Source of the DNA: Mobula hypostoma
Taxonomy: Eukaryota
Length of the DNA stretch: 64,000 nt
NCBI RefSeq assembly: GCF_963921235.1
Contig: NC_086097.1
Coordinates: 40,984,001-41,048,000 of the forward strand
Direction: 5' to 3'
Below the pieces are notes generated by a model, which saw only the letters and a program-made list of their open reading frames with translations, was not told where the DNA came from and did no database searches. The translations under genes were made by a program, and so were the position numbers. Below are positions 1 through 61,631 of this stretch, piece after piece (positions within the stretch are counted from its first letter, which is position 1; every line of letters begins with the position of its first letter).

Positions 1-59
1 AAAATATATCCAGGGCAGTGTTTCGCCATCAGACAGCAATGCGTAAAAAATAAATGTTC

Positions 60-1213
60 TTCTACCTACTGAACAGAGCTTACTCCCATTTGGATAAGCA
101 GGGCAGCGCTGTGAAGATCCGTGTTTTTTTGATTTCTCAAGTGCCATCATTACTGTACAGCCCTCACTGCAGGGGGAAAAGTCCCATTCAATGCAGATTG
201 GTTTTTCCATTGTATCCTGGATAATGGACAACCTGACTGGCACCACAGTCTGTGCAGCTTCAGAGCTGTGTGTCAGACATGGCTATAAGCAGCACTGTTG
301 CCCCATAGGGAACTGTATTGGCTCCTTTCCTGTTTATCCTGTACACCTTGGACTTCAGATACAACGCAGAATCATGTCATCTGCAGAAAGTCTCTGATGA
401 CTCAGCAATAGCTGTGTGTTTAAAGGGAGGACGGGAGGATGAATACAGGGCCCTGGTGGAGGACTTTCTCAAATAGTGAAAGCTAAATCATCTGCAGCTC
501 AACATTAGTGAGACAAAGGATATGAAGATGGACCTTAGGAAAACTAAGTTTGCACTGCTCCCTGTTACTATTGATGGTGAATACCTACAAGTACATGGAG
601 TGCACCTGGATGACAGACATGAGTGGAGCACCAACACAGAGGCTGTGTACAAGAAGGGCCAGAGTTGCCTCTACTTCATAAGAAGACCGAGGTCCTTTGG
701 AGTATACAGGCCTCTCCTTCACATGTTCTACCAGTCTGTTGTCACCCGTACAGTCTTCTGTGTGGTGGTGTGCTGGGGCAATGGCATCAACATGGGTGAT
801 GCCAACAGATTCAATAAACTGATTAGAAAGATGGGTTCTGTTATAAGAGTCAAACTGGACACACTGGAGGATGTGGTAGAACAAAGGACCCTACAGAAAT
901 TCCTGACAATTCTGGAGAATGCTTTTCACCCTCTGCATGCCAAATTGGCTGGACAGATTAGCATCTTTTAATAATGGACTAAGACAACTGCACTGTGCCA
1001 AAGAGCGCTATATAAGGTCATGCTTACCCTCGGCCATTAGGCTCTATAATACGTTAATCTATAGATGGGAAGTGATAACCCCTCCTGTTAGACTGTTTGT
1101 GGTAACTTATTTTTTATTCTTTCTACTTCTCTACTAATATTTATATCTGCGCACTTGTAATGCTACTGTGTCACTGTAATTTCCTTTGGGATCAATAAAG
1201 TATCTATCTATCT
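60..1213 (+). mobile_element. Rex1/Babar-type LINE, decayed 3' portion (RT, C-terminal domain, tail)
   Basis: Broken frames read RAYSHLDK..FFDFSSA, GTVLAPFLF.LYT, an xSDD-type RT motif near 385-400 and HLQLNIS. ORF 522-971 has KKGQSCLYFIRR..MFYQSVV..WG. Ends with GGGATCAATAAAG(TATC)n. Confidence 0.8.
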
Positions 1214-1340
1214 TTCATAATTCCTTTTGTTGGGGCTTCTTGTGCATAATTTAGCTGCCACATCTCCTACATGGCTGTAATGAGTACATTTCAAAACCTG
1301 TTCCATTGGCTGAACAGCATTCAGAGGTGGCTTAAGTAAA

Positions 1341-1627
1341 TCTATTTATTCATTTATTCAGATACAATGTGGAATATGCCCTTCCAGCCCTTCGAGCCAT
1401 GCCACCTGGCAAATCCCCCCGTTTAATCCATGGGACTATTTACAGTGACCAATTAACCTTTCAACCGGTACGTCTTTAGACTGTGGGAGGAAACCAGAGC
1501 AGCCTGAGGAAACCCATGTGGTCACGAGGAGAACATGCAAACTCCTTACAGGCAGTGGCGGGAATTGAACCTGGGTTGCTGGTACTGTAAAGTGTTGAGC
1601 TAGCCACTAGTCTACTGTGCCACCCCA
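1341..1627 (-). mobile_element. tRNA-derived V-SINE (HE1-like)
   Basis: Reverse strand has a tRNA-like head with B box GGTTCAATTCC, a V-domain-type core (GGGTTTCCTC..GCTCTGGTTTCCTCCCACAGTC), a CR1-like 3' end and an A-rich tail. Confidence 0.8.
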
Positions 1628-3054
1628 CAATATGAAACAAAAGGCTCTACCAAATCTAAATCTTTCTATTTGTCCTGATAAAAAAAAGCACAATATAAAT
1701 ACTGCAATACTGCTTGTGCAATGAAAATTAAATATCTTAGTGTACTAATTTTGTTTCATTTGGCTTTAATTCTATAAAAGGCAAATATTGAAGATCTCAT
1801 TATTTTCTATTAAGAGTTAGCTTCCAGTTAAAAATGTCTAAGTACTGATTGAAGGGTTATTCTCCTCAAAGGTGGATTTCACTCATTTGCAGATTTCTCT
1901 CTTCCTTAAAAACACCGTGGCATCAACAACGCAGATTTATTTACCATCTGCAAAGTGACTCAGTGATCCACAAGTAAAGCATTCTTATTGACCTGTCATT
2001 TATCCACTTAGTTATGCATTGGGGAATAGATCAGATTGTGTTTATGGTGAACATGGCAGGATAGATGAGAAATACCCAGTGCTTTTTTTTTCTAACCTGT
2101 GTTCAACTCACGACTGTATTCATTTTATTAATCAGCTTGTCCATTTCATAAAAATGGGACTGAAGAGAGGCTTATTGTTGTGTGACAAATTATGTGTTAT
2201 AATCTGCTCTTGATTGTGGGGAATAAATTGTGAGGGTATTCACTATAAACCTATTATTATGGCTTTCATGGTATCGGTTACTCATCTGGGTTTCAGATTT
2301 CATTGATTCAAAGGAAGGTCCCACCACTATAATTTAGTTTAAAAATTGCAGCATTCCACAACGACCAGCATTGCAGCTCCTCAAACCTGCTCCAGCTGTC
2401 AGCTTTACACTTCGACTTGCAATTTAGAAAAAAAACATCTGCACCCAGAAGTCATTTTGCCTTCCAAATTTAATTTGTAGTTCAGTCTGTGAAGTTGTGC
2501 TTGCAGTAGAATAAATAATATGGCAAATTGGATTAACGTATAATTACATCTTTTGTTTTGATAGTCAAATTAACATTTAAAAATACAGAACCCTTAGTGT
2601 TATGAATTCAATATTTGAGTTAAAAAATTACCTGCAACCACTCGGCCAGGCCGCAGAGAAAATGATTTGGCAATTAAACACAAGTTTACAAACCTTTATA
2701 ATATTATATAATATTGCAAGGATTTTAATCTGAATATTACTTTTTGTTATTTGTTCTATAAAATTAGATCCTGATTGGATGGTTCTGAGAATGAGATACT
2801 CTGATTTCACAGTTTAATATTTTACTGATTTCTGAGCATTTTTCTATTTTAGAATGACAGCAACATAACTGTTCTAATTCTAACAGTCCTCAAGTGATAA
2901 CGAGGTGAGGGGGAAACAAAAAACAAAATTAAAAGATTTTATTTTACAACAGAAGTTTTAGTTTTAAGTTTTATTTTTATTGGATGTAATTGAATTGGTT
3001 AGAGGATTTTGAACTAGAATTTTGGATATCACCTGAAATATAATTGTTAACTGT

Positions 3055-3228
3055 TGTGTACATACATCTATTGATGCTTCTGGACACATCTTTAGTGATG
3101 TTCCTGGAATCATCGGGTGTTTCGGGTCTTTCAACATCATACAACCTCCTCCAGGTGACCAAGCCGGGGCTGATCAGACCCCAGCTTGTGTCCAGATGGC
3201 TAGCTACTTATGACTCCATGGCTCCCCT
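3055..3228 (-). repeat. 3' copy of the 174-bp terminal direct repeat (last codons plus 3' UTR)
   Basis: Aligns without gaps to 6692-6865; 6 mismatches by hand count. Confidence 0.95.
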
Positions 3229-6200
3229 CTTTTGAGCCACAGCCATCTTGAGGCCCTCTCTGCCGCATCAGTGGTACTGCGGATGGCTCTCCTCTTGCTC
3301 TCTCCCTCGATGCCCAAAATGCTGAAGGCTCTAACTAAAGAACGGGCTACGAATCCCTACAACCAACCTCCACTGGGAGACACCTCGCTCTCCATCCAGC
3401 CTGCTGACAGTTGCTGACCAGTCCTGCGTACTTGGAGAGCTTCCTTTCAAAGGCCTCTTCCAAGCTATCTTCCCATGGGACTGTCAGCTCCAGCAACACC
3501 ACTTGCTTAGTAGACTCAGACACTAGGACAATGTCTGATCACAGGGTGGTGGCTGTGATATGGCTGGGGAACTTCAGCTGCCGTTCGAGGTCCACCAACA
3601 GCTGCCAGTCCCTTGCAGAGGTCAGAATGCCTGCAGATGTTCTTTTGGCGGGTATTGGCTGCTCCCCAGCTCTGACAAAGGCAATGGTCTGCTTGGAGGG
3701 TCGGGACCACTTCACCCACTCAACTCCTGCGCTGACGGCTTCAGCGATGGTCTTCAGGACCCGATCATGCCTCCACCTGTACCGTCCCTCACCAAGTGCC
3801 CTTGCACAGCCGCTGAGGATGTGCTCAAGGGTTCCTCTCTTGGAGCACAGTGGGCGCACAGGTGACTCTGCCTTGCCCCATGTGTGCAGGTTTGATGGGC
3901 TTGGAAGCACATCGTACACTGCCTGGATGAGAAATTGGATGCGGTGTGGTTCGGCTTTCCAAAGATCAGCCCAGGTCACTTTCCTCTCAACCGCATTCTC
4001 CCATCTTGTCCAAGCTCCCTGTTGCTTCATTCCCACCGCCTTGCAGGCTCTCATCGCCTCCACTACTGCTCGCACCTCCTCCTGAACTAGACGACGCCTT
4101 TCCTTCCCTCTGGTGTCCATTTGGGGAGTTGGAAAGGATCCTAGCCCAGCTCGGCCTTGTGTGACCACTCCCACCAGCCTCCTGTGATGCAGCCTCGCCT
4201 CTGCCTCCTGAATAGCTTCCTCTGCCCTCCACTTCCTGCCAGTACTTACTTGGATCCCTGCTCTAGCCACCTTCGGGACATTTGAGTCCCTATACTGTAG
4301 CACTTCTCTGGCTCTTGTTACCTTGAATTCTTCCTCCAAGGATTTGAAGGACAGTTGCAGTTTGTTGTGGTGTCCATAGAGTGCGATGCTGCTCAGGCTC
4401 TTTGGCAGCCCCAGCCATCTCCTGAGGTGGTTGCTAACCCTCCTCTCTAAGGTTTCGACTGTCGAGATCGGAACTGCATAGACGAGGAGGGGCCACAGGA
4501 TTCTGGGAAGAATGCCAAGCTGATACACCCAGGCTTTAAACTTCCCAGGTAGGCCAGACTTGTCCATAGATTTCAGCCAGCTATCCAACTCGGTGCAGGT
4601 TGCCTGAATGGATGTTGTGTCCCTTAAAGAGCTGTCAAAAACTTTGCCTAAGCTCTTGACTGGCTTTTCTGTGATGGTTGGGATGGCTGTGCCTGCGATG
4701 CTGAACCGGAACTTGTTCTCCACATTCCCTTTCCGCAGCACCATCGATCTTGATTTGGCAGGTTTGAAACGCATCCGGGCCCACTCCACCAGCTTTTTGA
4801 GCCCTTGCAGAATCCTCCGGCAGCCTGGGACTGATTCTGTGGTGACTGTGAGGTCATTCATGAATGCCCTGATAGGTGGTTGCCGTTGAGCGGAATTCAT
4901 TCTGGGCCCTCTGGACTCTGGTTCAGCAGACTTAGTGAGCATGTTCATGGCTAGGGAGAACAGTGTCACTGAGATAGTGCACCCTGTAATGATGCCGACC
5001 TCCACCTTGTGCCAGGTTGAAGTAATTGCTCCTGAAGAGACCCTCATCCTGAAGTTGCTGTAATAATCAGTGATAGGGTCTCTGATTCTGCTGGGGGGCA
5101 TGATATTTGGTCAGTGTGAGCTGCACCAGCTTGTGCGGAATGGAGCCATATGCATTTGACAGGTCGAGCCACAATACTGACAGGTTGCCCTTGTTCTCTC
5201 TGGCCTCCTTGATGAGCTGTGTTACCACACCGATGTGCTCCAGACAGCCCGGCATCCCTGATATGCCACCCTTCTGGACTGATGTATCAATATAGGTGTT
5301 CTGTGCTAGGTAGGTGCACAGCCGGTTGGAAACTGCACTGAAGAAGATCTTCGCCTTGACACACAGCAGGGAGATGATGCGAAACTGATCTATCTGGGTG
5401 GCATTTTCCTCCTTCGGGATCCACACCCCTTCAGCCACTCTCCACTGTTCTGGGATCTTCCCCCTTCTCCAGAAGATTCTCAGGATCTTCCACAGACGCA
5501 GCAGGAGTTTGGGGCAGTTCTTGTACACTTTGTACAAGGTGTTGCTTGGTCCTGGAGCCGAGCTTGCCCTTGCTTTGCGGACGACCTCTCTGACTTCCTT
5601 TAGTTGCAGCTCTGACACGTCGAACTGCACATCCGGTTCAGGTGGGTCTATTAGGATGTCGCACTCTCCCATCTCCTGCTCTCTTTCAGGATCAATGTAC
5701 ATCTTCTTCAGATGTTGGTCTATGTCTTCCTGCGAACAGGCCAGTTTCCCACTGCGCTTCTCCCCCAGCAACTCCTTGGTGAACTTGAAGGGGTTGGCGA
5801 TAAAGGCAGCACATTTTCGGGCCCTTTCACGACGCTGCCTCCGATGCCACTCTGCCCGGCAGAGGACCCTGATCTTCTTTCGTAGTATGCACATCAGCTG
5901 GGCCAAGCCCACGTGCTCCTCTTCTCCTGCCTCCTTGTGTTGGGACTTCAGCGCTTTCATCTCCTGCCTGATGTTGTGGATCCTCAGTGCTGTTTGGTTC
6001 TTCGAGTAAGATGTTTTGGAGCCTTCCTTCTCCTCTTCTCCGAACCGTTCAGCTGCGATACTAACATTAATTGTTGTCATAACTTGAAGCTTCCTATCAA
6101 CCCCTCCCTTTGCCGTTGCCTCCAGAATTTGGTTAACATCTTCATCAAACTGCTTCCACAGTGAAGTCATGTTAGCTGCAGGCCATTTGATCCACCTCCT

Positions 6201-6704
6201 GTTAGACTTCATGTTCGAGGGATTAGTTTGCAACACTTGGAGGTTCTGGGCACTATGGGGTGACTCTGGGCCTGGCCCCTCCTTCGTCTCACCAGGTTGG
6301 ACACCTGCGCGTTGTGCTGCTCCTGCTCCCGCCAAACACTTCATCCTCGCTTGGTGGATCTTCAAGCCGCGATCGTTCTTGCAGATTTTGCCACATGCAC
6401 ACTGGTTCCTCATCGTCGTTTGTTCATTGCCTGGGTCTGATGTCGTTGTGTCCATCTGACTGGGGTACTCATCCTCCCCCCTTCTCGGGCACCCCTGGGG
6501 GTATCTTTTCCTTAGATTTTTTGTGGCTTTTGTGGGGGTCCTCCTCTCAGAGGACGCAGATTGGGTTGCCAGCCCGTTCTGCCCTGGTTGCCGTCTCTCC
6601 GGGCTGTCACTGACTCTCCAGTCGTCACCACTCTTTTCGTGGTTGTCACCCAGTCTTTCCTGGTTGTCACTGATTAACTCAGGGTGTAAGCTGTGTACAT
6701 ACAT
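3204..6704 (-). pseudogene. Disrupted single ORF (ZnF-RT-RLE) of the HERO-like element
   Basis: ORFs 5067-6704 and 3539-5101 join through an extra base in the G6 run at 5093-5098. Premature TGA at 3539-3541. One-base deletion near 3355. The frame ends ..ERASRWLWLKRGEPWSHK* at 3204. Confidence 0.85.
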
Positions 6705-6865
6705 CTATTGATGCTTCTGGACACATCTTCAGTGATGTTCCTGGAATCATTGGGTATTTTGGGTCTTTCAACATCATACAACCTCCTCCAGGTGACCGGG
6801 CCGGGGCTGATCAGACCCCAGCTTGTGTCCAGATGGCTAGCTACTTATGACTCCATGGCTCCCCT
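6692..6865 (-). repeat. 5' copy of the 174-bp terminal direct repeat
   Basis: Aligns without gaps to 3055-3228. Confidence 0.95.
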
Positions 6866-6939
6866 AACACTCACCCTTTCCACTTATCAGTTATTTGATC
6901 TCAGACTGTGATTTCTTAAGGTGCTGAGGTTTTTTTAAG

Positions 6940-7480
6940 GAACAGGAGTAGGCCATTCAGACCTTTTTGACTCCATTACCAGTTAGATACAATTCATATC
7001 TCTGACCATGGTCTCAAACCCACTTTTCTCTCTGCTGCCCAGACTCCTTATTTCCCAATAGTTCAAAAGTACATCCCACTTAACTGTGATCCGTGCTTCA
7101 GAACTGTGGTAGAGAATTCTTAGGATGCAAAATCCCAAGACAAGAAAGACATCCGCAGCTCCCTCATCCCCCACATTCTAAAACTGCTTATTCAGCTTCC
7201 TTGTTTGAGATAGCCTCATTAACTCAAAGAGGGGCGTCATCCTCTCAGCATCCATCCAGCCAATCCTACTCAGAGCCTTATTTTTCAAAAGATTACCTCT
7301 CCTCCTTCTATTCAGGCCTGACCTGTTCCCAAAACAACCCTCTCATTCTAGGAATCAACAGTGTGAATCTTCTCAAAACTATCTCTAATGCATGTAAATT
7401 CATAAATAAACATGGTGAATCTGTATGTAGTGGCCCAATGCCTTTTGTAGTTGTAGCAAAACTTCCCCTTTAAAGACCGT
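6940..7480 (-). mobile_element. Old CR1-type LINE 3' fragment
   Basis: Begins GGAACAGGAGTAGGCCATTCAG, as do other CR1 3' ends in the window; heavily decayed. Confidence 0.5.
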
Positions 7481-8574
7481 TGGTTTATCCTTTTATCTAT
7501 TAGTGAATCCGTCTATACTCATGACTGCTGAAATTCCTTTGATAAAGGTGCACCCGCTATACTGTTGGAAAGGGAATTCCAGAATTTTGATCCAGCAATA
7601 ACAGAGGAATAGGGATATATTGTAAGGTGAGTGTGATGTGCAAATTGGAAGGTGGCAAGGGTAAGTGGTGGTGCTTCTGTACATCTGCAGCCCTTGCAAT
7701 TGGAGATAGAGGTTTTGAGTTTGAGAAGTACTATCAGAATAGCCCGGGTAAATAACTAGAGTGCATTTTCTAAATACTGCAGCTCTGTGCAATGGTGATC
7801 TTCAAAGGCCTACTAAACTTTGTCAAACACTTTTTTTTCCTTTCATACAGCCACGTTTAATCCATTTAGAATGATGTACTAACTCTTCTGTTACTTCTTC
7901 AGCGATGAATTTCAACATTTTCCCAAAAGCATGATGACCAGGTTAACCAAAGTTAACTGAGTGTACTCCTGTGTTCTTGTAAAATTATTATTTTTAGAAG
8001 TTATCACTAACAAGGAACAGAGACAATGACAAAACATTGTTGTGGAGTATTTTGTTACTCTGATGCTACTGCTGTAATATTTTAGTGTGGTATGTTTCAT
8101 TAGTGTGTCAGTCAGAAGGTATTCCAGGTAGTTTATGTGGCCTACTTGCCCATCTAATTAAATCAGCAAGAACAGAAGCAGAGGCTTTGAAAGTAAGTGA
8201 ACTTTTCAAGTTTAAAAGGACCCAAGATGCATGAAGTCTAGCAAAATAATGCCATGTTACCCCAGATCTGTCCTCTCCAGCTGCTTACCCAATGGATCAC
8301 CCAGTTAACCTCCCCTCAGTCTTCTGCTCCAGAGTTGTAATTTCCATTGGAGTCTCATTCACGCTAATTCAGTCTGACAATTAAAATGATTTACTCTTGA
8401 ACCTGGGTAGATCCCAGAGCATAGTACATACCAAAACTCAGCCGTTTCACAAATCAACCTCAGCTTGTATTCTCCATTTTCAAACCACAGGTGGTAAGTG
8501 AGCTGAGAAATATTGCAGCAAAGTTCAATCCTAGTGTATGGTTTTAATTAAAGATGGTGAGGGAAGGAGTTGAA

Positions 8575-8786
8575 TATAAAATATTGCAGTTTCTGCATAA
8601 AGTGAAAGGAAAATAAATAACTTTCAGCACATCAAACAGCCTTGGTGGAGAGAAATACATAGGATTAATGCTTCAAGCCAAGGACTCTGGATCAGAACAG
8701 TCAATTGGTCATCAACTTGAAGCATTAAGTCCATCTTTCTCTCTGGAAAATACCCTAAACTGCTCACTGTTTGCAATATTTTTATA
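8575..8786. repeat. ~210-bp foldback (imperfect palindrome), probably an old Penelope-terminus derivative
   Basis: AAAATATTGCA (8578-8588) pairs with TGCAATATTTT (8772-8782); TTAATGCTTCAAG (8665-8677) pairs with CTTGAAGCATTAA (8716-8728). Confidence 0.7.
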
Positions 8787-9867
8787 TAAGATGAGCAATC
8801 CTAATCATCAGCCACCCTTGAACTTCAGCTGAATTCGGATAATTACTTGTGTTACCTTTTGCTGTTCAAAATATTAAAAAAGTGCATGTTTATTTTCTTA
8901 AAATCAATACAACTGATGAGCTTTATCAACATTATATTAACTCTTTGCAATGCATGCTGTTAAGATGAAATTTTAAAATAAAGTTCAATTTGAATATAAC
9001 TAGAAAAATTGACAGCATGCAATTCATGTGTAATGCTCTTGTGTCTTAAAATTATGTCCTCTTAAATGTTGTTTTGTTTACAATTTACATGTAAAATCCA
9101 TTTATAAATGTTAGACTAGGCATGCAATCATTTTTGGGTCGACTGGGAAAATTGGCCGGGGTATATCACTTTCACACATCTGATAACTGCTTGATGCAAG
9201 ATGCATATCTAATGACATCATTCAGTGCAAATGGACTTTTCCATATTTATGAAGAGAAATTGACTGTTGAAGATGTGGGATATTAATAGATGCAAATTAA
9301 AGACCATGGACACTAGATTTATTTTTTTCAGTACTCCACTTTTGTCCAGAAGCATCACTGACAGTGATGGCAGTGTGTCTATATTGTACAAGGTTCTGTG
9401 ATCACTGGCCCCCTTTATGAGCTCGTAGCTCAAAGTGGCTTGTGTCTATTTGCTGCAGGGGAATGAATCAGGTCACAACACAGTGGAAGACCATGTGAAC
9501 CCCCTTCACTACGTTTTCCCTCAGCAACTTGGCAAACGTTTATGCTGCTTTACTCTGAGTTCTGACTCATTTCCCAAGGGTTCATGTGACAGTGATATTA
9601 GATTAGATTATGAGGACACGCAGTCCTCTTTGTTATCGTCTTTGAACTGCAGAAGAAGCTGCTACCAGGAAAGTGGCTGAAAGATGGGGAAAAAGCTGAG
9701 TAAGGTTTTTGTGCTTATTTCAGGATGAAACAACTACAATTATTTTTAACCTTATTTTCATTAATTATGCTTTTTCTTGCGGGATTTCAGATTGAATAGT
9801 TTAGAGTCCAAAAAGCAGTGAACTTGTTGCTTGTGCCTGCTACATGTACAAATGAAATGATGCACTT

Positions 9868-10150
9868 AGAACTAGAGGTCCTCGAGGTTAAGGGTTAAAG
9901 GTGAAGTGTTTAGGGGAATATGGGGGGGATCTTCCTCAGTCAGCGGGTGGCGAGAATGTGTAACAAGCTGTCAATGGAAGTGGTGGATGCGGGCTAGATT
10001 TCAGCACTAAAGAGAAATTTGGATAGGCACATGGATAGGAGGGGTATGGAGGGCTCTAGGCAGGGCTCTGTGACTAGGCAGAATGATAGTTCGGCATGGG
10101 CTAGATGGACTGAAGGGTCTGTTTGTACACTCGTATTCTATGACTCTATT
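9868..10150 (+). mobile_element. CR1 LINE 3' end fragment
   Basis: Similar to the RTRGH..FFTQRVV..WN.L C-terminus and 3' UTR of other CR1 copies here; ends TATTCTATGACTCTAT. Confidence 0.7.
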
Positions 10151-10412
10151 TACTTGTGCATATGACAAGTTTGACTTTTCTTTCTAAGCATTACATTCTT
10201 TTTGAAATGTAAAATGTGATCAGTTGAAGAATATGATTTACATTCACACAGTAAAGGTTTGATATTATTGGATATTACTTAAACCCTTTCCATCTCAAAA
10301 CCTGACTTAATGGCTTTGATTATTGCACTTTAACCAATACTGATTTCCATTATGCTTTTAGACAACTTTTACAATCAGCTGATTTGAAATCAATGTTTGC
10401 TTTTTTAAACAG

Positions 10413-10545
10413 GGCGAAATAAAGATTCTGAAACTGAAGAACCTTCGGCCCAAGGATTATGCAAATTACAGTTGCATCGCATCAGTGAGAAATGTTTGTA
10501 ACATCCCCGACAAGATGGTCTCATTCAAGCTTAGCAATGCGACAG
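10413..10545 (+). CDS. MDGA2: MDGA2 internal exon, C-terminal half of an Ig domain (Ig2), 133 nt, phase 0 to 1
   Basis: Acceptor ttttttaaacAG, donor GTAGGT. Translates GEIKILKLKNLRPKDYANYSCIASVRNVCNIPDKMVSFKLSNAT, recognised as MDGA2-like with a D.A.Y.C Ig motif. Phase matches the next exon (G+CT=Ala). Confidence 0.93.
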
Positions 10546-10906
10546 GTAGGTCGTGTTATCAGTTCGTGTAGAAAGACGATGCCTGTCCGGTCACAGACTT
10601 AGTTCTCTTGATCCTCATTCTGCATCGACCAAGCTTTTTTTTAGATTTATTGTACTGCAGAAAGAACTCTGCAACTTCTCAGTGTGCAGGACTACACAAG
10701 TATAAAGTGATAGGCTTCTAAAAGGAACTAATGATCGATGTAAACGTTTGGAATGGGTATAGGCTCATTATCAGTCTCCAGCATGCCATCCACGCTGTGT
10801 CAAACTAGTGTCTTGGTTGTATCAGTGCACTGCACAGAGCAGGCAGTTTCATTTTTAATGCTGACAAAAGAGATTGCAAGTGTTGGAATCTGGAACAAAA
10901 TCATAC

Positions 10907-11195
10907 TGCCAGAATAGCGTAGTGGTCAGCACAAGGCTTTACAGTGCATGCAGCCCAAGTTCAATTCCCGCCACTGCCTGTAAGCAGTTTGTACGTTCTC
11001 CCCGTGGCCGCATGGGTTTCCTCCAGGTACTCCGGTTTCCTCCCACAGTCCGGAGACATTCTGGCTGGTAGGTTAATTGGTCATTGCAACTTGACCCATG
11101 TTAGGCTAGGATTGAATCAGGCGATTGCTGGGCTAAGTGGATCAAAGGGCCGATGGGGTCTGTTCCACACTGCAGCTCAACAAACAAATAAACAA
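10907..11195 (+). mobile_element. tRNA-derived V-SINE
   Basis: A box TAGCGTAGTGG (10915-10925), B box GTTCAATTCC (10959-10968), V-domain core, (ACAA)n-like tail. Confidence 0.8.
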
Positions 11196-11199
11196 AACT

Positions 11200-11535
11200 G
11201 CACAGTCTGTGGCGGCAGTGGGGTTAAGCTGATGTTCTAGACCGAGATTCTGCATCTGGATTCAGAGAGGAGCATTAACATTGCCAGCATATAGCAGGAG
11301 GATGGAAGGGTCGGACAGAGTTGGTAGGTCGAACAAAATGAGGGATGGGGTAGGAAATGGGTAAGTGGAACCAGATGAGGGAGAGGATGGGAAAGGTGAA
11401 CAAATTGAGAAGGCAACTAGGTGGGTAGGTGAGTGTGCATAGGAGGAGAGCGCCGGGGTGGGTGGGGGAGAGGAGGAGGAGAACGAGGGGTGTGGGTTAA
11501 CTGAAACTGGAAAATTCACTGTTTTTAACCTTGGA
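11200..11535 (-). mobile_element. Decayed Penelope pseudo-LTR fragment
   Basis: Purine-rich tract resembling 58540-58930 and 48490-48810. Confidence 0.5.
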
Positions 11536-11537
11536 AG

Positions 11538-12037
11538 CAGAATCAGAATCAGAATCAGGTTTATAACCACTAACAGATGTATGTCATGAAATTTGTTGTT
11601 TATTGGCAGGAATACAGTACAATAAAGAAAATATACTATAAATTACAGTAATAAGTAATACTATAAAAAGTTTTGTAAAAACAGAGCAAAAATAGCAAGC
11701 TAGTGTTCATGGATCCATGGACTGTTTAGAAATCTGATGACAGAGGGGAGAAAGCTATTCTTAAAATATTGAGTGTGTTAAATCAGGCTTCTGTACCTCC
11801 TCTCTGATGGTGGTAATGAGAAGAGGGCATATCCTGGGTTGTGGATGCCGCCTTCTTGAAGCATAACTTTTTGATCATGTCCTCACTGCTAGGAGGCTAG
11901 TGGCTGTGATGGGGCAGGCTAGGTTTACAACCCTCTGTAGCTTTGTCCAGTCCTGTACAATGGCTCCTCGATACTAAATGGTGATGCAACCAGCAAGAAT
12001 GTTCTCTGTGCTATATCTGTAGAAATTTGCTAAAGTC
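11538..12037 (-). mobile_element. Rex1/Babar-type LINE 3' fragment
   Basis: (AGAATC)3 tail at the left end; reverse-complement similarity to 15870-16425. Confidence 0.7.
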
Positions 12038-48325: not shown

Positions 48326-49822
48326 TGGGCACCACAGGAGCATCGGGGTTAGCATGATGCCATTGCAGCTTGGGACGTTCCAGGCACAGACACGAGGAAA
48401 TCTGCTGAGGCTGGAAATCCAAGAAACACAAACAAAAAACTGGAGGAACTCAGCAGGCCAGACAGCATCTATGGAAAAGATTAAACTGTTGATGTTTCAG
48501 GCTGAGACCCTTCATCAGGACTGGAAAAAACGATGAGAAGTCAGAGTAAGAAAGTAGGGGGAGGGAGAAGCGAAACCAGGAGAGGGGGAAGGGGTGAAGT
48601 AAAGAGCTGGGAAGTTGATTGATGAAAGAGATAAAGGGCTGGAGAAGGGGGAATCTGACGGGAGACGATAGAAGACCATGGAAGAAAGGGAAGGAGGGAG
48701 AAGCACCAGAGGGAGGTGATGGGCAGGCAAGGAGGCAAGGATATAGTGTGAGAGAGGGGAATGGGAATGGTGAAGGATAGTCGGGGGGGGGGTAATTACT
48801 GGAGTTTGAGAAATTGAGACAGCAGAAGTTAAGAAGAATGATGTGCTAGACACGGAGGCTGGTGGAGAGGTAGGTGAGGACAAGAGGAATCTGATCCCTG
48901 GTACCTACTGTATCCGGTGCTGCTGGAGTGGCCTCCTGTATATTGGTGAGACCTGATGTACATTTGGGAGACCACTTTGCTTAGCACCTACGCTCTGTCA
49001 GCCATAAGAAGCAAGATCTCCCAGTATCCATCCATTTCAATTCTACTTCCTAATCCGACATGTCAGTCCATGGCCTTCTCTACTGCTGTGATGAGGTCAC
49101 ACTCAAGTTGGAGGAGCAACACTATTTATTCTGTCTGGGTAACCTCCAACCTGATGGCATGAGCATCAATTTCTAGAACTTTCCGTAAATGCCACCACCC
49201 CCCACCCCACCATTCCCCATTCCCATTTCCCTCTCAACTTGTATCTTTACCTCTCCATTACCTCCCCCTCCTGCACCTCGCCCTCTCCTCCTCCTCCCCT
49301 TCCCATTCTTCCATGGTCTTCTATCCTCTCCCATCAGATTCCCCTTTCTCCAGCACTTTACCTCTTCCACCAGTTAACTTCCCAGCTCTTTACTTCACCC
49401 CTCCTACTTTCCAGGTTTCACCCATCACCTACTACTTTGTTCTTTTCTCTCGCCTCCCCCACCTTCTTACTCTGACTTCTCTTTCTTTCCAGTCCTGATG
49501 AAGGGTCTCGGCCCAAAGCGTCGACAGTTTATTCATTCCGATAGACATAGCCTGGCCTGCTGAATTCAACCAGCATTTTGTGTGGGACGTTCCAGAGTTC
49601 AGATTTCAATTCATGTGCCTTCTGTAAGGGGTTTGTATGTCTCCCTGTGAGTATGTGGATTTCCTCCGGTACTCCAGTTTCCTCCCACTTGAAAGACATA
49701 ACAGTTAGTAGGTCATTGTAAATTGTCCTGTGATTAGACTAGTTTTAAATAGGCGTGTTGCTGGGGTTGGTGCAGCTCGCTGGGCTGCAAAGGCCTATTC
49801 CCCCTGTATCTCTAAATAAAAT
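48326..49822 (+). mobile_element. V-SINE interrupted between its A and B boxes by a Penelope derivative
   Basis: Head at 48326-48383; body resumes at 49596 with TTCAATTC, the V domain and an AAATAAAA tail. Confidence 0.75.
48384..49582. mobile_element. Penelope-like derivative with inverted pseudo-LTRs and a GIY-YIG remnant, 13-bp TSD
   Basis: TSD TGGGACGTTCCAG at 48371-48383 and 49583-49595. YCIRCCWSGLLYIGET at ~48906-48953. Decayed hammerheads at 48487-48522 (-) and 49491-49526 (+). Confidence 0.88.
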
Positions 49823-50744: not shown

Positions 50745-51012
50745 ATTTATTTATTGAGATCCCTTACAATCCTATGAGCTGCACCGCCCCAAAATCCCCC
50801 TGATTTAATCTGAGCCTGATCACAGGACAATTTACAATGACCAATTAACCTACCAACCAGTACTTCTGTGGACTGTGGGCTGAAACCAGAAAACCCAGAG
50901 GAAACCCATGTTGTCATGGGCAGAATGTACAAACTCCTTACAGGCAGCGGTGGGAATTGAACCTGCGTCGCCTGTACTGTAAACCGTTAAGCTAACCACT
51001 ATGCTACCACAC
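50745..51012 (-). mobile_element. tRNA-derived V-SINE
   Basis: Reverse strand: TAGCATAGTGG A box, GGTTCAATTCC B box, V domain; same family as 1341-1627. Confidence 0.8.
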
Positions 51013-57370: not shown

Positions 57371-58532
57371 ATCCCTCTTTATGTTGTATCTTTTCCTTCT
57401 TGTATCTTTCTCAGCCAGTTTCTCTCTTTTCTGCCTCTTAACTCTGTGGCTTCAAGCTGGGATACATTATTCAGATCTTGTCTCTCATCTGTGACCCAAA
57501 TGGTGAATATTAGCATGGAGCTGGGAGAGTAGATTATGAGGACACTCAGTCCTCGTTTATTGTCATTTAGAAATGCATGCATTGAAAAAATGATACAATG
57601 TTCCTTCAGAAATATATCACAAGAAAACACAGGACAAACCTGTGATAAAGAATGATAGCTGAGTGTGACAGAATCACCATGGATTTCAACATTCTTAGGA
57701 TCAGGAACCAGAATACTTGCCCATTGTCCTTTCAGCCACATGGTGTTACTGAATCAAGACATCTGTAAGGCAATACTGCTGGCTGGCATATCCTAAGCTG
57801 CAGAAGTACCTGTTGTGGGATGCACTGAAACTTGGTGCAGGCAATCAAAAGACTCTGTGGTGTAGGATCACGCAGTCGAGGATCAGTCAGCTGTGGGACA
57901 TAGAGTGGGGAGGTTGAGTTTGGTGGCAAGCTTCTCAGACTGAAAGGATGTATGTCACTAGAGGACTGCACGAGTGGCTACTGAATGTATTGACCACATC
58001 TCACTAACACTGGAAAGAGTCTTGCTCTGCTTATGAATGAAGTTTATTTTTGTATTAAAGACATCTTATTAAAGCATACAAGACTGAGAGGGATGAACAG
58101 GGAAGATATTATTTCCATTAGCTGTAGAATTTAGGGGTGTAGTGGCAGAATAAAGGACTGTAAATTTGGATTAAAGTGAGGAATACTCTATGCAGAATTT
58201 TATAAATCTTTTTAGTACTGATTCATTGAGTATGCTGAAAGGAAATTAATAGTCTTTTGGCATTAAGAGTCAGGGAATATGGTGAGTGGGGGTGGTGGAG
58301 AAATGGCCTGGATGCATTGCATAAGTCTGGTAGAACAAGCTCAAATGCTTCCACTTTTAAGAACATTACAATTAATTGCCCTCTCCTATGGCTACAAAGG
58401 AATTTTCAATGGTAGAGATGAACCTCACTTACACAAACATGAGGAAATCTGCAGATGCTAGAAATTCAAGCAACACACACAAAAAATGCTGGTGAACGCA
58501 GCAGGCCAGACAGCATCTCTAGGAAGAGGTAC

Positions 58533-58568
58533 AGTCGACGTTTCGGACCGAGACCCTTCATCAGGACT
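58533..58568 (-). ncRNA. Minimal type I hammerhead ribozyme in the Penelope pseudo-LTR
   Basis: AGUC-CUGAUGA-A-GGGUCUCGGUCC-GAAA-CG-UC-GACU: stem I AGUC/GACU, intact core, short stem II, palindromic ACGU stem III. Confidence 0.85.
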
Positions 58569-60827
58569 AACCGAAAGAAGAGATGGTAAGAGATTTGAAA
58601 GTGGGAGGGGGAGGTGGAGATCCGAAATGATAGGAGAAGACAGGAGGGGGAGGGATGGAGCCAAGAGCTGGACAGGTGATTGGCAAAAGGGATACAAGGC
58701 TGGAGAAGGGAGAGGATCATGGGACGGGAGGCCTAGGGAGAAAGAAAGCGGGAGGGGAGCCCAGAGAATGGAGAGCAGGCAAGGAGTTATAGTCAGAGGG
58801 ACAGAGGAAGAAAAGAGAGAGAGAGAGAGAGAAAAAAAAACAGAAATAAATAAATAAATAAGGGATGGGGTACGAAGGGGAGGAGGGGCATTAACAAAAG
58901 TTAGAGGTCAATGTTCATGCCATCAGGTTGGAGGCTACCCAGACAGAATATAAGGTGTTGTTCCTCCAACCTGAGTGTAGCTTCATCTTGACAGTACAGG
59001 AGGCCATGGGTAGACATATCAGAATGGGAATGGGACGTGGAATTAAAATGTGACGCCACTGGGAGATCCTGCTTTCGCTGGCGGACAGAGCGTAGATGTT
59101 CAGCGAAACGGTCTCCCAGCTTGTGTCGAGTCTCGCCAATATATAGAAGGCCGCATCGGGAGCACCGGACGCAGTATATCACCCCAGCCGACCCACAGGT
59201 GAAGTGTCGCCTCACCTGGAAGGACTTTCTGGGGCCCTGAATGGTGGTGAGGGAGGAAGTGTAAGGGCATGTGTAGCACTTGTTCCGCTTACAAGGATAA
59301 GTGCTGGGAGGGAGATCAGTGGGGAGGGATGTGGGGAACGAATGGACAAGGGGGTTGTGTAGGGAGCGATCCCTGCGGAAAGCAGAGGGTGGGGGGAAGA
59401 TGTGCTTGGTGGTGGGATCCCTTTGGAGATAGCAGAAGTTACGGAGAATTATATGTTGGACCCGGAGGCTGGTGGGGTGGTAGGTGAAGACAAGAGGAAA
59501 CCTATTCCTAGTGGGGTGGCGAGAGGATGGGGTGAGAGCAGATGTGCGTGAAATGGGAGAGATGCATTTGAGAGGAGAGTTGATGGTGGAGGAAGGGAAG
59601 CCCCTTTCTTTAAAAAAGGAAGACACCTCCTTTGTCCTGGAATGAAAAGCCTCATCCTGAGAGCAGATGCGGCGGAGACGGAGGAATTATGAGAAGGGGA
59701 TAGTATTTTTGCAAGAGACAGGGTGGGAAGAGGAATAGTCCAGGTATCTGTGAGAGTCCGTAGGCTTATAGTAGACATCAGTAGATAATTGTCTCCAGAG
59801 ATAGAGACAGAAAGATCAAGAAAGGGGAGGGAGGTGTCAGAAATGGACCTGGCAAACTTGAGGGCAGGGTGAAAGTTGGAGGCAAGGTTAATGAGGTCGA
59901 CGAGCTCAGCATGCGTGCGGGAAGCAGCGCCAATGCAGTCGTCGATGTAGCAAAGGAAAAGTGGGGGACAGATACCAGTATAGGCTTGGAACATGGATTG
60001 TTCCACAAAGCTAACAAAAAGGCAGGCATAGCTGGGACCCATACGGGTGCCTATGGCTACACCTTTAGTTTGGAGGAAGTGGGAAGAGCCAAAGGAGAAA
60101 TTATTAAGAGTAAGGACTAATTCCATTAGACGGAAGATAATGGTGGTAGAGGCGAACTGGTTGGGTCTGGAATCCAAAAAGAAGTGGAGAGCTTTGAGAC
60201 CTTCCTGGTGGGCGATAGAGGTATATAGGGACTGGACATCTATGGTGAAAATAAAGCGGTGGGGGCCAGGGAACTTAAAATCATTGAAAAAATTCAGAGT
60301 GTGAGAAGTGTCACGAACATAGGTGGGAAGGGATTAACAAGGGGTGATAAAACAGTGTCGAGGTATGCAGAAATGGGTTTGGTGCAGCAGGAGCAAGCTG
60401 AGACAATAGGTCTACCTGGACAGGCAGGTTTGTGGATCTTGGGTAGGAGGTAGAAGCAGGAAGTGTGGGGTGTGGGAACTGTAAGGTTGGTAGGAGTGGA
60501 TGGGAGATCCCCTGAGCTGATAAAGTTGGTGATGGCATCCCTTATTTATTTATCCCCCCTCCCCATTTTTTTTCCTCTCTCTTTTTCCTTCCTCTGTTCC
60601 TCTCACTATAACTCCTTGCCTGCTCTCCATCCCTTGGGCTCCCCTCCCCTTTTCTTTCTCCCTAGGCCTCCCATCCCATGATCCTCTCCTTTCTCCAGCC
60701 TCATATCCCCTTTTGCCAATCAACTTTCCAGCTCTTAGCTCCATCCCTCCCCCTCCTGTCTTCTATCATTTCGGATCTCCCCCTCCCCCTCCCACTTGCA
60801 AATCTCTTACTATCTCTTCTTTCAGTT

Positions 60828-60863
60828 ACTCCTGACGAAGGGTCTCGGCCCGAAATGTCAACT
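60828..60863 (+). ncRNA. Decayed minimal hammerhead in the inverted pseudo-LTR
   Basis: CUGACGA-A-GGGUCUCGGCCC-GAAA-UG-UC. Core is intact, but stem I and the palindrome are mutated. Confidence 0.6.
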
Positions 60864-61631
60864 GTACCTCTTCTTATAGATGCTGCCTGGCCTGCTGCAT
60901 TCACCAGCATTTTTTGTGTGTATTGCTCATTTGAAGGTAGATTGACGTGGTTGTGGTGATTAATTATCTCTGTTCTTTAAGTACTAGGACGTCACATAGA
61001 AACATAGAAAACAGTGCAAATCACTGTTGGAGTTCCTCAGTACTAAGAACAATAATCTTCATCCATTTCATCAGAAGATCTGGTGGGAGGAGGATTGGGT
61101 TGTTGTTCAGCAATGATTGCACAATGTCTAGTTACGTATACAACTCCTCAGTGGTTGCATGTAACAACACCCTAACAGCAGTCTGGCACATCGGTGGGAA
61201 GTAGCTTTTGTAGCACAGATGTGCCAGATAATGACCATCTCCAGCTTAGGAGAGGATAACCAGCATGATGTTTAGTGGCCTTATTATTGCACCCCCCAAT
61301 CAAAATCTTGGGGATCACTATTGACCTTCTCAATTGGATCAACTACATAAATACTGGCAATTGGGAGCCTGTGGTGGGAGACTCACTTCCCGCTGTCCAC
61401 AGCACTTCAGCCATTAGGGGTATGATGGAATATACTCGAAGAACCTGGATGACTGTAGTTCAACAACACACGAAAAGCTTGATGCAATTTAGGACAAATC
61501 AGCCACATAATTGTTACTGCATCACTCTGACAATTCATTCTCTCCACCACTTTCACCCAGAGTGTACCAATTACAAAATAAGCTACACTTACTCACTTAG
61601 GATACAGTTGCAACACCTCCTGAACCTGTAA

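Follow-up and report, generated by a model that had tools for sequence, protein, structure and literature searches.

The insertion at positions 3055..6865 of the window, by which we mean the whole 64,000-nt stretch of Mobula hypostoma DNA analysed here, is a decayed RLE retrotransposon of the HERO/Zebulon clade, and the end of its 3'UTR is repeated directly upstream of its 5'UTR. This 3'UTR-to-5'UTR junction is a feature of the family rather than a one-off event, and the repeated segment carries an RNA that is conserved, shows covariation and has all parts of a hammerhead core. We propose, with a probability of roughly 0.55, that two such ribozymes cut out a unit-length RNA, whose ends are joined again, in all likelihood to form a circle, and which then serves as template for more than a single round of copying.

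The element and its terminal repeat

All features described here lie on the minus strand. Repeat search and pairwise blastn reproduced what an earlier note on this DNA had described: a 3637-nt unit preceded by a redundant 174-nt segment of its own 3' end, with 6 mismatches, and neither poly(A) nor TSD. The direct repeat (3055-3228 and 6692-6865) is ungapped, all its mismatches are transitions, and its start-to-start period is 3637 nt. Its copies match each other with E ~5e-79, and the next-longest direct repeat in positions 1-12000 of the window does not exceed 29 nt; like the note, we do not ascribe the redundancy to chance. Both the upstream, pseudo-LTR-like copy (6692..6865) and the terminal one (3055..3228) comprise the last codons and the 3'UTR and stop at the same final base, while the flanks of the insertion have in common only two off-register 5-mers. 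The identity of an LTR retrotransposon was considered and rejected, as the upstream segment is variable in length, no TSD was found, and Pfam revealed no integrase family.

The open reading frame of this now inactive element is broken into three parts. The first (5094..6509) encodes an N-terminal zinc-finger-like C/H motif (from 6401) and the first half of the RT, and ends in a frameshift at about 5094. The second (3356..5095), which extends to another frameshift at about 3356, encodes the rest of the RT, the thumb, a zinc knuckle and the RLE; here the first catalytic Asp of the RT and the first Cys of the zinc knuckle are altered, and an in-frame stop interrupts the RLE at about 3538. The third (3213..3356) contains the C-terminus and the stop codon (3215-3213). 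The broken frame is co-linear with intact homologues of 1100 aa, in which a single ORF encodes the RT and, C-terminal to it, an RLE of the PD-(D/E)XK type. Pfam found RVT_1 in both ORF halves, each time under the curated cut-off, and no other family; the best PDB matches are R2 proteins (E 2e-47), and R2 and L1 proteins are the closest structural relatives. The predicted protein is 66% identical over 519 aa to the Tetraodon polyprotein AAN12398.1 / Q7T1J8, and a quick RT tree, built with no R2/NeSL/R4 outgroup, unites the element with this protein and Takifugu BAC82598.1 in one clade of 13 rows (SH-aLRT 100). We take these accessions to be Zebulon, HEROTn and HEROFr. The assignment to RLE non-LTR elements made in the earlier note was thus borne out by the RT, the C-terminal RLE and the place among pufferfish HERO proteins. 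In the 5'UTR, short hairpins whose loops are rich in purines form a conserved array (6578..6684), which starts about 20 nt past the junction.

The junction in other copies and organisms

Among the 72 loci analyzed, the end of the ORF continues into an ORF start in 10, and where a 5'UTR anchor is present (17 loci), the ribozyme core lies upstream of it in 12 and is missing there in the other five; in L042 the redundancy amounts to only ~24-31 nt. As to the question of the earlier note whether full-length copies routinely carry an upstream 3' segment, one that includes the core is found in the majority of the anchored loci. Wrap-around in short-read contigs of multi-copy families proves the junction, not full tandems at single insertions.

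The upstream boundary of the repeat was recovered in organism A (X1 record 8, 6838-7300, 0 differences) and in organism B (X5 record 24, 6839-7300), both contigs passing from the repeat into the same flank, with 28 and 27 nt in the repeat, respectively; these lengths are below our 31-nt bridging rule, and X1 is possibly the window's own sample. Two contigs bridge the junction 6691|6692, namely X5 record 22 (6586-6724), which has 12 differences and 2 gaps relative to the window and therefore represents another copy, and X9 record 31 (6593-6782). One more contig, guessed to be RNA (X11 record 14), also extends across the junction, but as it has no more than 26 nt on one side, it was left out of the counts. 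In total, organisms A and B show the boundary, and organisms B and C the junction. No single contig among those listed spans the whole stretch; nevertheless, these occurrences, together with the 6 differences between the repeat copies, answer the concern of the earlier note about an assembly artefact and leave it a negligible probability. Organism B has the same insertion, and no empty site was seen. The summed depth of X1 contigs is ~4e5 over the repeat and 18 in the flank, values that we do not take as a copy number.

Loose 3' ends of the family are spread over 6687-6692 with a mode at 6691. The shared junction that the note asked about is bridged in other copies, but the family ends are not confined to one base, and the junction seen in the window is therefore merely the end point of this copy. 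The HERO clade is known to lack target-site specificity (PMC3636483), and the low agreement of flanks at the loose ends 6688-6692 (0.36-0.53) fits this.

These data bear on the possibility of a one-off event, be it an R2-type end-to-end template jump or the insertion of a second, 5'-truncated copy precisely next to the 5' end of the first. Jumps from one template end to another are a property of R2-type RTs, and truncated 3'UTR copies with many different flanks are present in the genome, both of which would favor such an origin. However, contigs from other copies and organisms span this same junction, many divergent families have it with similar spacing, and the 3.4% difference between the repeats is about that expected for decay from identical copies. 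We consider the one-off origin to be largely refuted and its residual probability to be very small. The plain jump from a 5' end to a 3' end, listed in the note, is unlikely also because many families have inherited the junction and because the RNA is predicted to end at the cut site rather than at the junction.

A hammerhead core with a split stem II

As judged from the sequence, HERO 3'UTRs contain a complete hammerhead core in the non-circular S-G-C order. The motif begins (5' to 3') with a strand of helix X, hairpin H with its palindromic loop, the stem II 5' strand (with G10.1) and helix A; these are followed by the stem III 3' strand, the NUH cut site and stem I, a short linker, and the stem II 3' strand with GAAA; the stem III 5' strand, A', stem I' with CUGAnGA, and X' complete it. 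The stem II 5' strand is thus separated from CUGAnGA, and two additional helices, one of them with the palindromic loop, keep it in position. Directly after CUGAnGA only 0-2 nt are paired in 37 of the 39 motif places (4 in L029/L030); the partner strand is found ~21-27 nt upstream of the predicted cut, instead of being joined directly within 0-2 nt.

In the window, the upstream motif occupies 6713..6835, with the predicted cut at 6777/6776, and the 3' copy occupies 3076..3198, with the predicted cut at 3140/3139, i.e., 85 nt from the 3' end. Both are mutated at core positions, just as the ORF is broken: G12 (6760) and G10.1 (6798) of the former differ from the family majority, and G5 (3093) and G10.1 (3161) of the latter are altered. 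The 6-nt palindromic loop of hairpin H, a candidate kissing loop, lies at 6808..6813 in the upstream copy and at 3171..3176 in the 3' copy. The earlier note rightly supposed that the upstream segment (6692-6865) holds the whole structured RNA, although it missed that this RNA appears to be a hammerhead-type ribozyme. Its remark that the extra copy is just long enough is correct for this copy but not for the family, considering the five anchored loci without an upstream core and L042.

The search pattern for the S-G-C core gave 41 raw matches, two of which were inside ORFs and were dropped; the remaining 39 places are located in 36 of the 72 loci, on the sense strand only, and five dinucleotide shuffles of 272,143 nt contained none. 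By pattern or covariance model, the motif follows 36 of the 41 evaluable ORF ends (L043, L070 and L071 had it by neither), and it is kept in elements whose proteins share no more than 35-40% identity with the query. The covariation alignment comprised 25 of the 39 places and the two window copies, near-duplicates, cut-off sequences and the most divergent motifs being excluded. Its 34 pairs in six helices are 89.2% paired, compared to 63.0 +/- 1.0% in shuffled and 38-43% in slid controls, and 29 of these pairs exhibit changes on both sides, including those in helices X, H, II and A, on which the pattern did not select; helix A is 90.9% paired. Stems I and III and two core words are part of the pattern, and their conservation is therefore partly circular.

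Conservation was counted over 31 clusters below 80% identity (mean 49%). U4, G5, A6, A9, G12, A13, A14 and A15.1 are invariant in all 30 clusters with letters at these positions, whereas N7 varies; H17 is A in 9, C in 12, U in 10 and never G; G10.1 is retained in 27/31 and C11.1 in 28/30. CUGAnGA, GAAA, A15.1-U16.1 and NUH make up the family-wide core. In L040/L041/L042, C3-G8 is replaced by U3-A8, a natural and active hammerhead variant (PMC3088659, PMC4209133).

Rfam gave no hammerhead match in positions 2900-7000 of the window (E<=5) and no match to any family in eight loci (E<=2), anything else it listed being at the level of chance, and the motif did not emerge from folding of single sequences (z -0.99 and -2.61). 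Inspection by eye also suggested a twister or a minimal PLE-type hammerhead; both readings were dropped when the S-G-C pairing proved to covary. As for viral contigs, the motif pattern occurs there in 10 loci, nine with a stem I of <=2 bp and one (L076) of the contiguous SGC type, with a direct stem II of 5 bp under the same test, in contrast to the interrupted block C of HERO; the HERO covariance model matched none of the 10, and protein scans of the viral contigs gave no matches. Such wiring would escape structure-based searches that assume unbroken core blocks.

Our literature search, whose scope did not extend to subscription papers, Repbase reports and the 2003/2004 originals, revealed no ribozyme or mechanism for the HERO tandem structure, no description of the split-stem-II wiring, and no paper combining hammerhead, Hero, non-LTR and ribozyme. 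Within these limits, the new part would be the content of the duplicated segment, namely a hammerhead of apparently undescribed topology.

Proposed replication cycle

Site-specific self-cleavage of the HERO motif is highly probable. In this case, if a copy with the whole motif at both ends were transcribed through, cleavage at both motifs should release an RNA of unit length, in the present case 3637 nt, whose ends are a 5'-OH and a 2',3'-cyclic phosphate. Helices X and A could clamp both sides of the cut, and the ends would be re-joined, most simply into a circle; we rate ligation of this kind as somewhat better than an even chance. The protein would then nick AT-rich DNA non-specifically and prime reverse transcription internally, ~85 nt 3' of the cut, and the RT would go round the template and beyond its start. 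Copying past the start would account for the near-fixed 3' end, the lack of poly(A) and the variable length of the upstream 3' segment. Propagation is to be expected only from copies whose extra segment covers the whole motif (~145 nt or more). Of the routes offered by the earlier note, more than one round of reverse transcription on a circular RNA thus appears plausible.

The cut site poses a constraint on any such scheme. It is intact in genomic copies (X1 records 6 and 7 and X5 record 23 bridge 6776|6777), and the copied RNA was therefore either uncut or re-joined there. If the 3' ribozyme were efficient, the final 85 nt, which all insertions retain, would be lost; hence, re-joining or repression must be assumed. 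Repression is what distinguishes a linear version of the cycle, which we find rather unlikely: the upstream motif would set the 5' end, like the HDV ribozyme of R2, while protein or folding keeps the 3' motif uncut, resulting in an RNA with an 85-nt terminal redundancy akin to the R region of LTR elements. On arriving at the 5' end, the RT would switch, guided by homology, to a 3'UTR, either that of the same RNA or that of a second one paired via the palindromic loop, and rebuild the whole upstream motif. The DNA product would be identical to that of the circle; 5' processing by ribozymes is established for R2 and L1Tc (PMC6765202); the hairpin-H loop is palindromic in 25 of 32 motifs, with five different palindromes and a background of 0.16; and in L012 the 3'UTR of one element is followed by the ORF of a different one with just 68% identity, though nested insertion or faulty assembly may account for this. 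On the other hand, two identical motifs would have to behave differently, and no loose ends pile up at the cut (6776/6777) among the rows listed.

Against cleavage speaks the replacement of the covalent A9-G10.1 link by the two-helix insertion. The motif might then be a non-cleaving, hammerhead-derived fold, bound by the protein for template choice, with partial tandems arising by read-through of tandem masters and subsequent 5' truncation. The intact cut sites agree with this, and tandem masters are consistent with the wrap-around contigs. However, a catalytic RNA would be expected to show just what is retained across these highly divergent elements, namely invariant catalytic bases, an H17 that is never G, and the U3-A8 swap, which makes the non-cleaving fold improbable.

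Returning to the excised and re-joined unit RNA, we may extend it, tentatively and at less than even odds, to a viroid-like cycle of autonomous LINEs. A non-circularly permuted hammerhead of a seventh topology, its core opened at A9/G10.1, would cut unit-length RNA; the resulting circle would be translated without cap or tail via the 5'UTR hairpin array, RNAs would pair by the palindromic kissing loop, and the RT would start internally and go round the template more than once. If so, a non-circularly permuted ribozyme exists at high copy in animal genomes, and the long-known partial tandems are explained. If the circle holds, internal priming on a circular RNA is within the abilities of an R2-group RT, a point of relevance to LINE biology as well as to gene-insertion tools of the R2 group. 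Host transcripts could be cut by high-copy 3'UTR fragments.

Comparison with known systems

A tandem structure of the pufferfish element Zebulon was reportedly described by Bouneau and co-workers in 2003, and the earlier note missed that such a structure had reportedly been published for this group. The pufferfish HERO/Zebulon elements resemble ours in the single ORF with RT and RLE, the lack of target specificity and, by that account, the tandem structure; a partial tandem of the Zebulon type, with the 3' segment directly upstream of the 5'UTR, recurs in many of the copies analyzed here. The proposed cycle offers a directly testable cause for this structure, i.e., why one LINE clade needs more than unit length.

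The type-SGC (HRIMA-1) hammerheads are non-circularly permuted and cleave experimentally, their A9-G10.1 covalent link was assumed to be uninterruptible, and none was reported in genomes of known organisms (PMC10085705). The HERO motif shares with them the S-G-C order, all core bases, pseudoknotted stems, a short linker between stems I and II, and an extra helix joining the other sides of these stems (HERO helix A). Unlike them, it has an interrupted block C, with the stem II 5' strand upstream of block S and tied by helix X and hairpin H, and it is genomic, residing within a protein-coding LINE. Non-circular permutations are thereby moved from metatranscriptome RNAs into animal chromosomes.

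Penelope-like elements and retrozymes (PMC4209133; bioRxiv 10.64898/2026.07.22.740005) also possess an upstream copy of the 3' end, and each of their repeats holds a hammerhead; for Penelope elements, a circle model like ours has been put forward (PMC4209133), and circular RNA with more-than-unit reverse transcription would be common to both systems. Their own hammerheads, however, are of type I or minimal, and they rely on a telomerase-like RT with a GIY-YIG nuclease or encode no protein, whereas HERO has an R2-group RT, the RLE and a non-circular hammerhead topology; neither Pfam nor the structural comparison indicated a telomerase-like RT or a GIY-YIG nuclease in our element. As to the 5' HDV-like ribozymes of R2 and L1Tc (PMC6765202, PMC13708176), the RT is related and the ribozyme likewise frees RNA from a read-through transcript. 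Their ribozyme has the HDV fold and lies in the 5'UTR, so that unit copies are complete, while the predicted hammerhead of HERO lies in the 3'UTR and could act at the 5' end only if duplicated.

The terminal redundancy and its junction

The element in the window begins and ends with a direct repeat of 174 nt (3055-3228 and 6692-6865), ungapped and with 6 mismatches, all of them transitions, the period between the two copies being 3637 nt; on the minus strand, each copy comprises the final codons with the stop and the entire 3'UTR. The claim of the earlier note that the 3' end of a 3637-nt unit recurs upstream of its 5' end is thus confirmed, as is its observation on the insertion, at which neither poly(A) nor a target duplication was found. 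Further copies of the element were sought within the window, and none was detected. The dispersed, diverged repeats of the window (1429-1622, 10907-11121, 50799-51007, also 48385-49584 and 58432-60927; 68-87% alike) are probably SINE or LINE fragments. At 3051-3058, the four flank bases adjoining the 3' end repeat, at an offset of three, the four template bases that surround the junction, a match that may possibly reflect microhomology priming with slippage, or chance.

In two organisms, contigs that include 27-28 nt of the upstream repeat continue into the identical flank, and contigs from two other organisms bridge the 3'UTR-to-5'UTR junction (6691|6692). That the redundancy is an assembly artefact is therefore a negligible prospect, and it fits worse than the copying of a circular or a linear RNA. 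The earlier note had also asked whether copies elsewhere carry an upstream 3' segment, and many do: the 3'UTR core lies upstream in 12 of the 17 loci with a conserved 5'UTR anchor and is absent there from 5. Among the 72 homologous loci fetched, 10 lead from an ORF end to an ORF start on one strand, and in further ones the 3'UTR is repeated ahead of the ORF (in L042 the redundancy is only about 24-31 nt); being collapsed short-read contigs, these are proof of the junction, though not of full tandem arrays. The junction is family-wide across HERO loci, and a one-off jump, which fits worse than either RNA-copying route, is very improbable. The tandem structure of HERO is already known, and the pufferfish Zebulon study reportedly described a partial-tandem structure. 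In four runs over 6200-7300, loose ends with unrelated flanks gather, among the matches listed, at 6687-6692; therefore, the 3' end is nearly fixed, the targets are non-specific and the length of the upstream segment is variable. Locus L012 (88-7266) holds two HERO elements, 68% identical and head to tail, the ribozyme and tail of the first leading into the 5'UTR and ORF of the second, which could represent inter-family strand transfer, nested insertion or mis-assembly.

Family assignment

The ORF of the window copy has two frameshifts, a stop within the nuclease motif, altered RT aspartates and an altered zinc knuckle, so that this copy is dead. Its N-terminal part retrieved 215 longer proteins at E<=1e-20 (up to 83% identity), whose named sources are mostly fish and marine invertebrates and which include Tetraodon AAN12398.1/BAC82599.1 and Takifugu BAC82598.1, in our assumption Zebulon, HEROTn and HEROFr. 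With AAN12398.1 the C-terminal part shares 66% identity, and in a quick tree of 65 rows the element and both pufferfish proteins form a 13-row clade with a support of 100. Among relatives of solved structure the best are R2 proteins, and an excerpt of PMC3636483 places Hero as a clade within the R2 group, without site specificity.

Two assemblies of bacterial isolates have HERO fragments on short contigs (L068:2-808 and L069:3-503; 65% and 54% identity), probably contaminating animal DNA. In L051, two different HERO elements (1-3027 and 3931-7311) lie in opposite orientation, head to head, ~0.9 kb apart. The predicted N-terminus of the database protein P0018 (residues 6-35) resembles a translated upstream 3'UTR copy (pairwise E 1e-5); gene callers therefore run into the redundancy.

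A hammerhead motif in the 3'UTR

All hammerhead core elements are present in the 3'UTR, in an unusual order. A pattern that required stems I and III besides NUH, GAAA and CUGAnGA in this (S-G-C) order matched 41 times, in 37 of the 72 loci and always on the sense strand; two of these matches, within ORFs, were dropped. Five shuffles of 272,143 nt contained no match. Of 46 ORF ends assessed, 5 were left out for too little sequence, and 31 of the 41 evaluable have a strict match within 600 nt. The covariance model adds L005, L041, L042 and L048, which, together with L039 (1.6 kb from the ORF end), brings the ORF ends followed by the motif to 36 of 41. As to the others, L038 has the motif upstream only, L007 is cut short, and L043, L070 and L071 lack it by pattern or covariance model; L043, on a contig that stops early, is the sister of the long-UTR lineage, while L070 and L071 are long branches in the tree. 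The divergent lineage with a 3'UTR of ~1.6 kb retains the ribozyme motif (L038:533-647, ahead of the ORF, and L039:4989-5103).

When 27 motifs are aligned by MAFFT, six helices with 34 pairs in all show 89.2% pairing, vs 63.0% in shuffles (0/500 as high) and 38-43% when slid, and both sides change in 29 of the pairs; the search pattern had selected for stems I and III, but not for helices X, H, II and A. Across 31 clusters (<80% identity), eight bases of the core never change (30/30 with letters there), N7 varies and H17 is never G. In one lineage U3-A8 replaces C3-G8, a swap natural and active according to excerpts of PMC3088659 and PMC4209133. A non-cleaving, protein-binding fold would be a doubtful account of this motif, fitting worse than the circular or the linear RNA. 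By every sequence test the motif behaves as a hammerhead, but this putative ribozyme belongs to none of the six described permutations, and Rfam gave no match to it.

In 25 of 32 motifs, related and hence not independent sequences, hairpin H has a palindromic loop of six bases (five different palindromes; background 0.16), which suggests, by analogy with the retroviral dimer signal, a kissing loop. The 5'UTR begins with an array of short hairpins, in which both sides change in 8 of 13 predicted pairs; we would guess at a role in cap-independent translation.

In the window, cuts are predicted on the minus strand at 6777/6776 (upstream motif) and 3140/3139 (3' motif), each 85 nt from the 3' end, and the upstream repeat covers the whole motif with ~30 nt in excess. 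The upstream copy differs from the family majority at 6751, 6756, 6760 (G12), 6798 (G10.1) and 6799; in the 3' copy, G5 is lost and G10.1 is likewise not the majority base. Both motifs are presumably inactive today. Their repeats diverge by 3.4%, which fits decay from identical copies, and the shared non-majority G10.1, a single site, hints at one shared template.

Proposed mechanism and known systems

Insertions retain an intact cut site and extend 85 nt beyond it; therefore, the copied RNA was either uncut or re-joined at the cut. The simplest reading, to which we give a probability of roughly 55%, is that cuts at both motifs would release a cut-to-cut unit RNA, which would close into a circle, be primed internally and be reverse transcribed for one round and a stretch of variable length beyond it. 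Its main rival, clearly less probable though the strongest of the alternatives, is a linear RNA cut at the upstream motif only, with homology-guided strand transfer across the 85-nt redundancy; by DNA alone, circle and linear RNA are inseparable.

Literature searches, with subscription papers and Repbase outside their coverage, returned no description of the ribozyme and its topology, nor did excerpts of PMC13580325, PMC2684134, PMC5678591, PMC6765202, PMC7650587, PMC13708176, PMC6155905 and bioRxiv 10.64898/2026.07.22.740005, nor a term search of one supplement file of PMC10085705. Within the literature searched, the putative HERO ribozyme and its topology, not found there, are the new part. 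According to excerpts of PMC10085705, the non-circularly permuted type-SGC hammerheads share with the HERO motif the order, short linker and extra helix, cleave in vitro and were not found in genomes of known organisms. A viral contig of IMG/VR (L076:2001-2065, minus strand) carries an apparently contiguous type-SGC hammerhead, with a 5-bp stem II directly after the core. The PMC10085705 excerpts take CUGAnGA as joined to stem II, whereas in HERO the bases after A9 pair with the upstream strand X and the strand bearing G10.1 lies 3' of hairpin H, ~22 nt ahead of the cut, so that the core is open at A9/G10.1, at which one bulged base alone has been described (PMC4209133, excerpt). The circle cycle considered here for HERO is likened to that of Penelope elements, for which the same cycle has been proposed (PMC4209133, excerpt).
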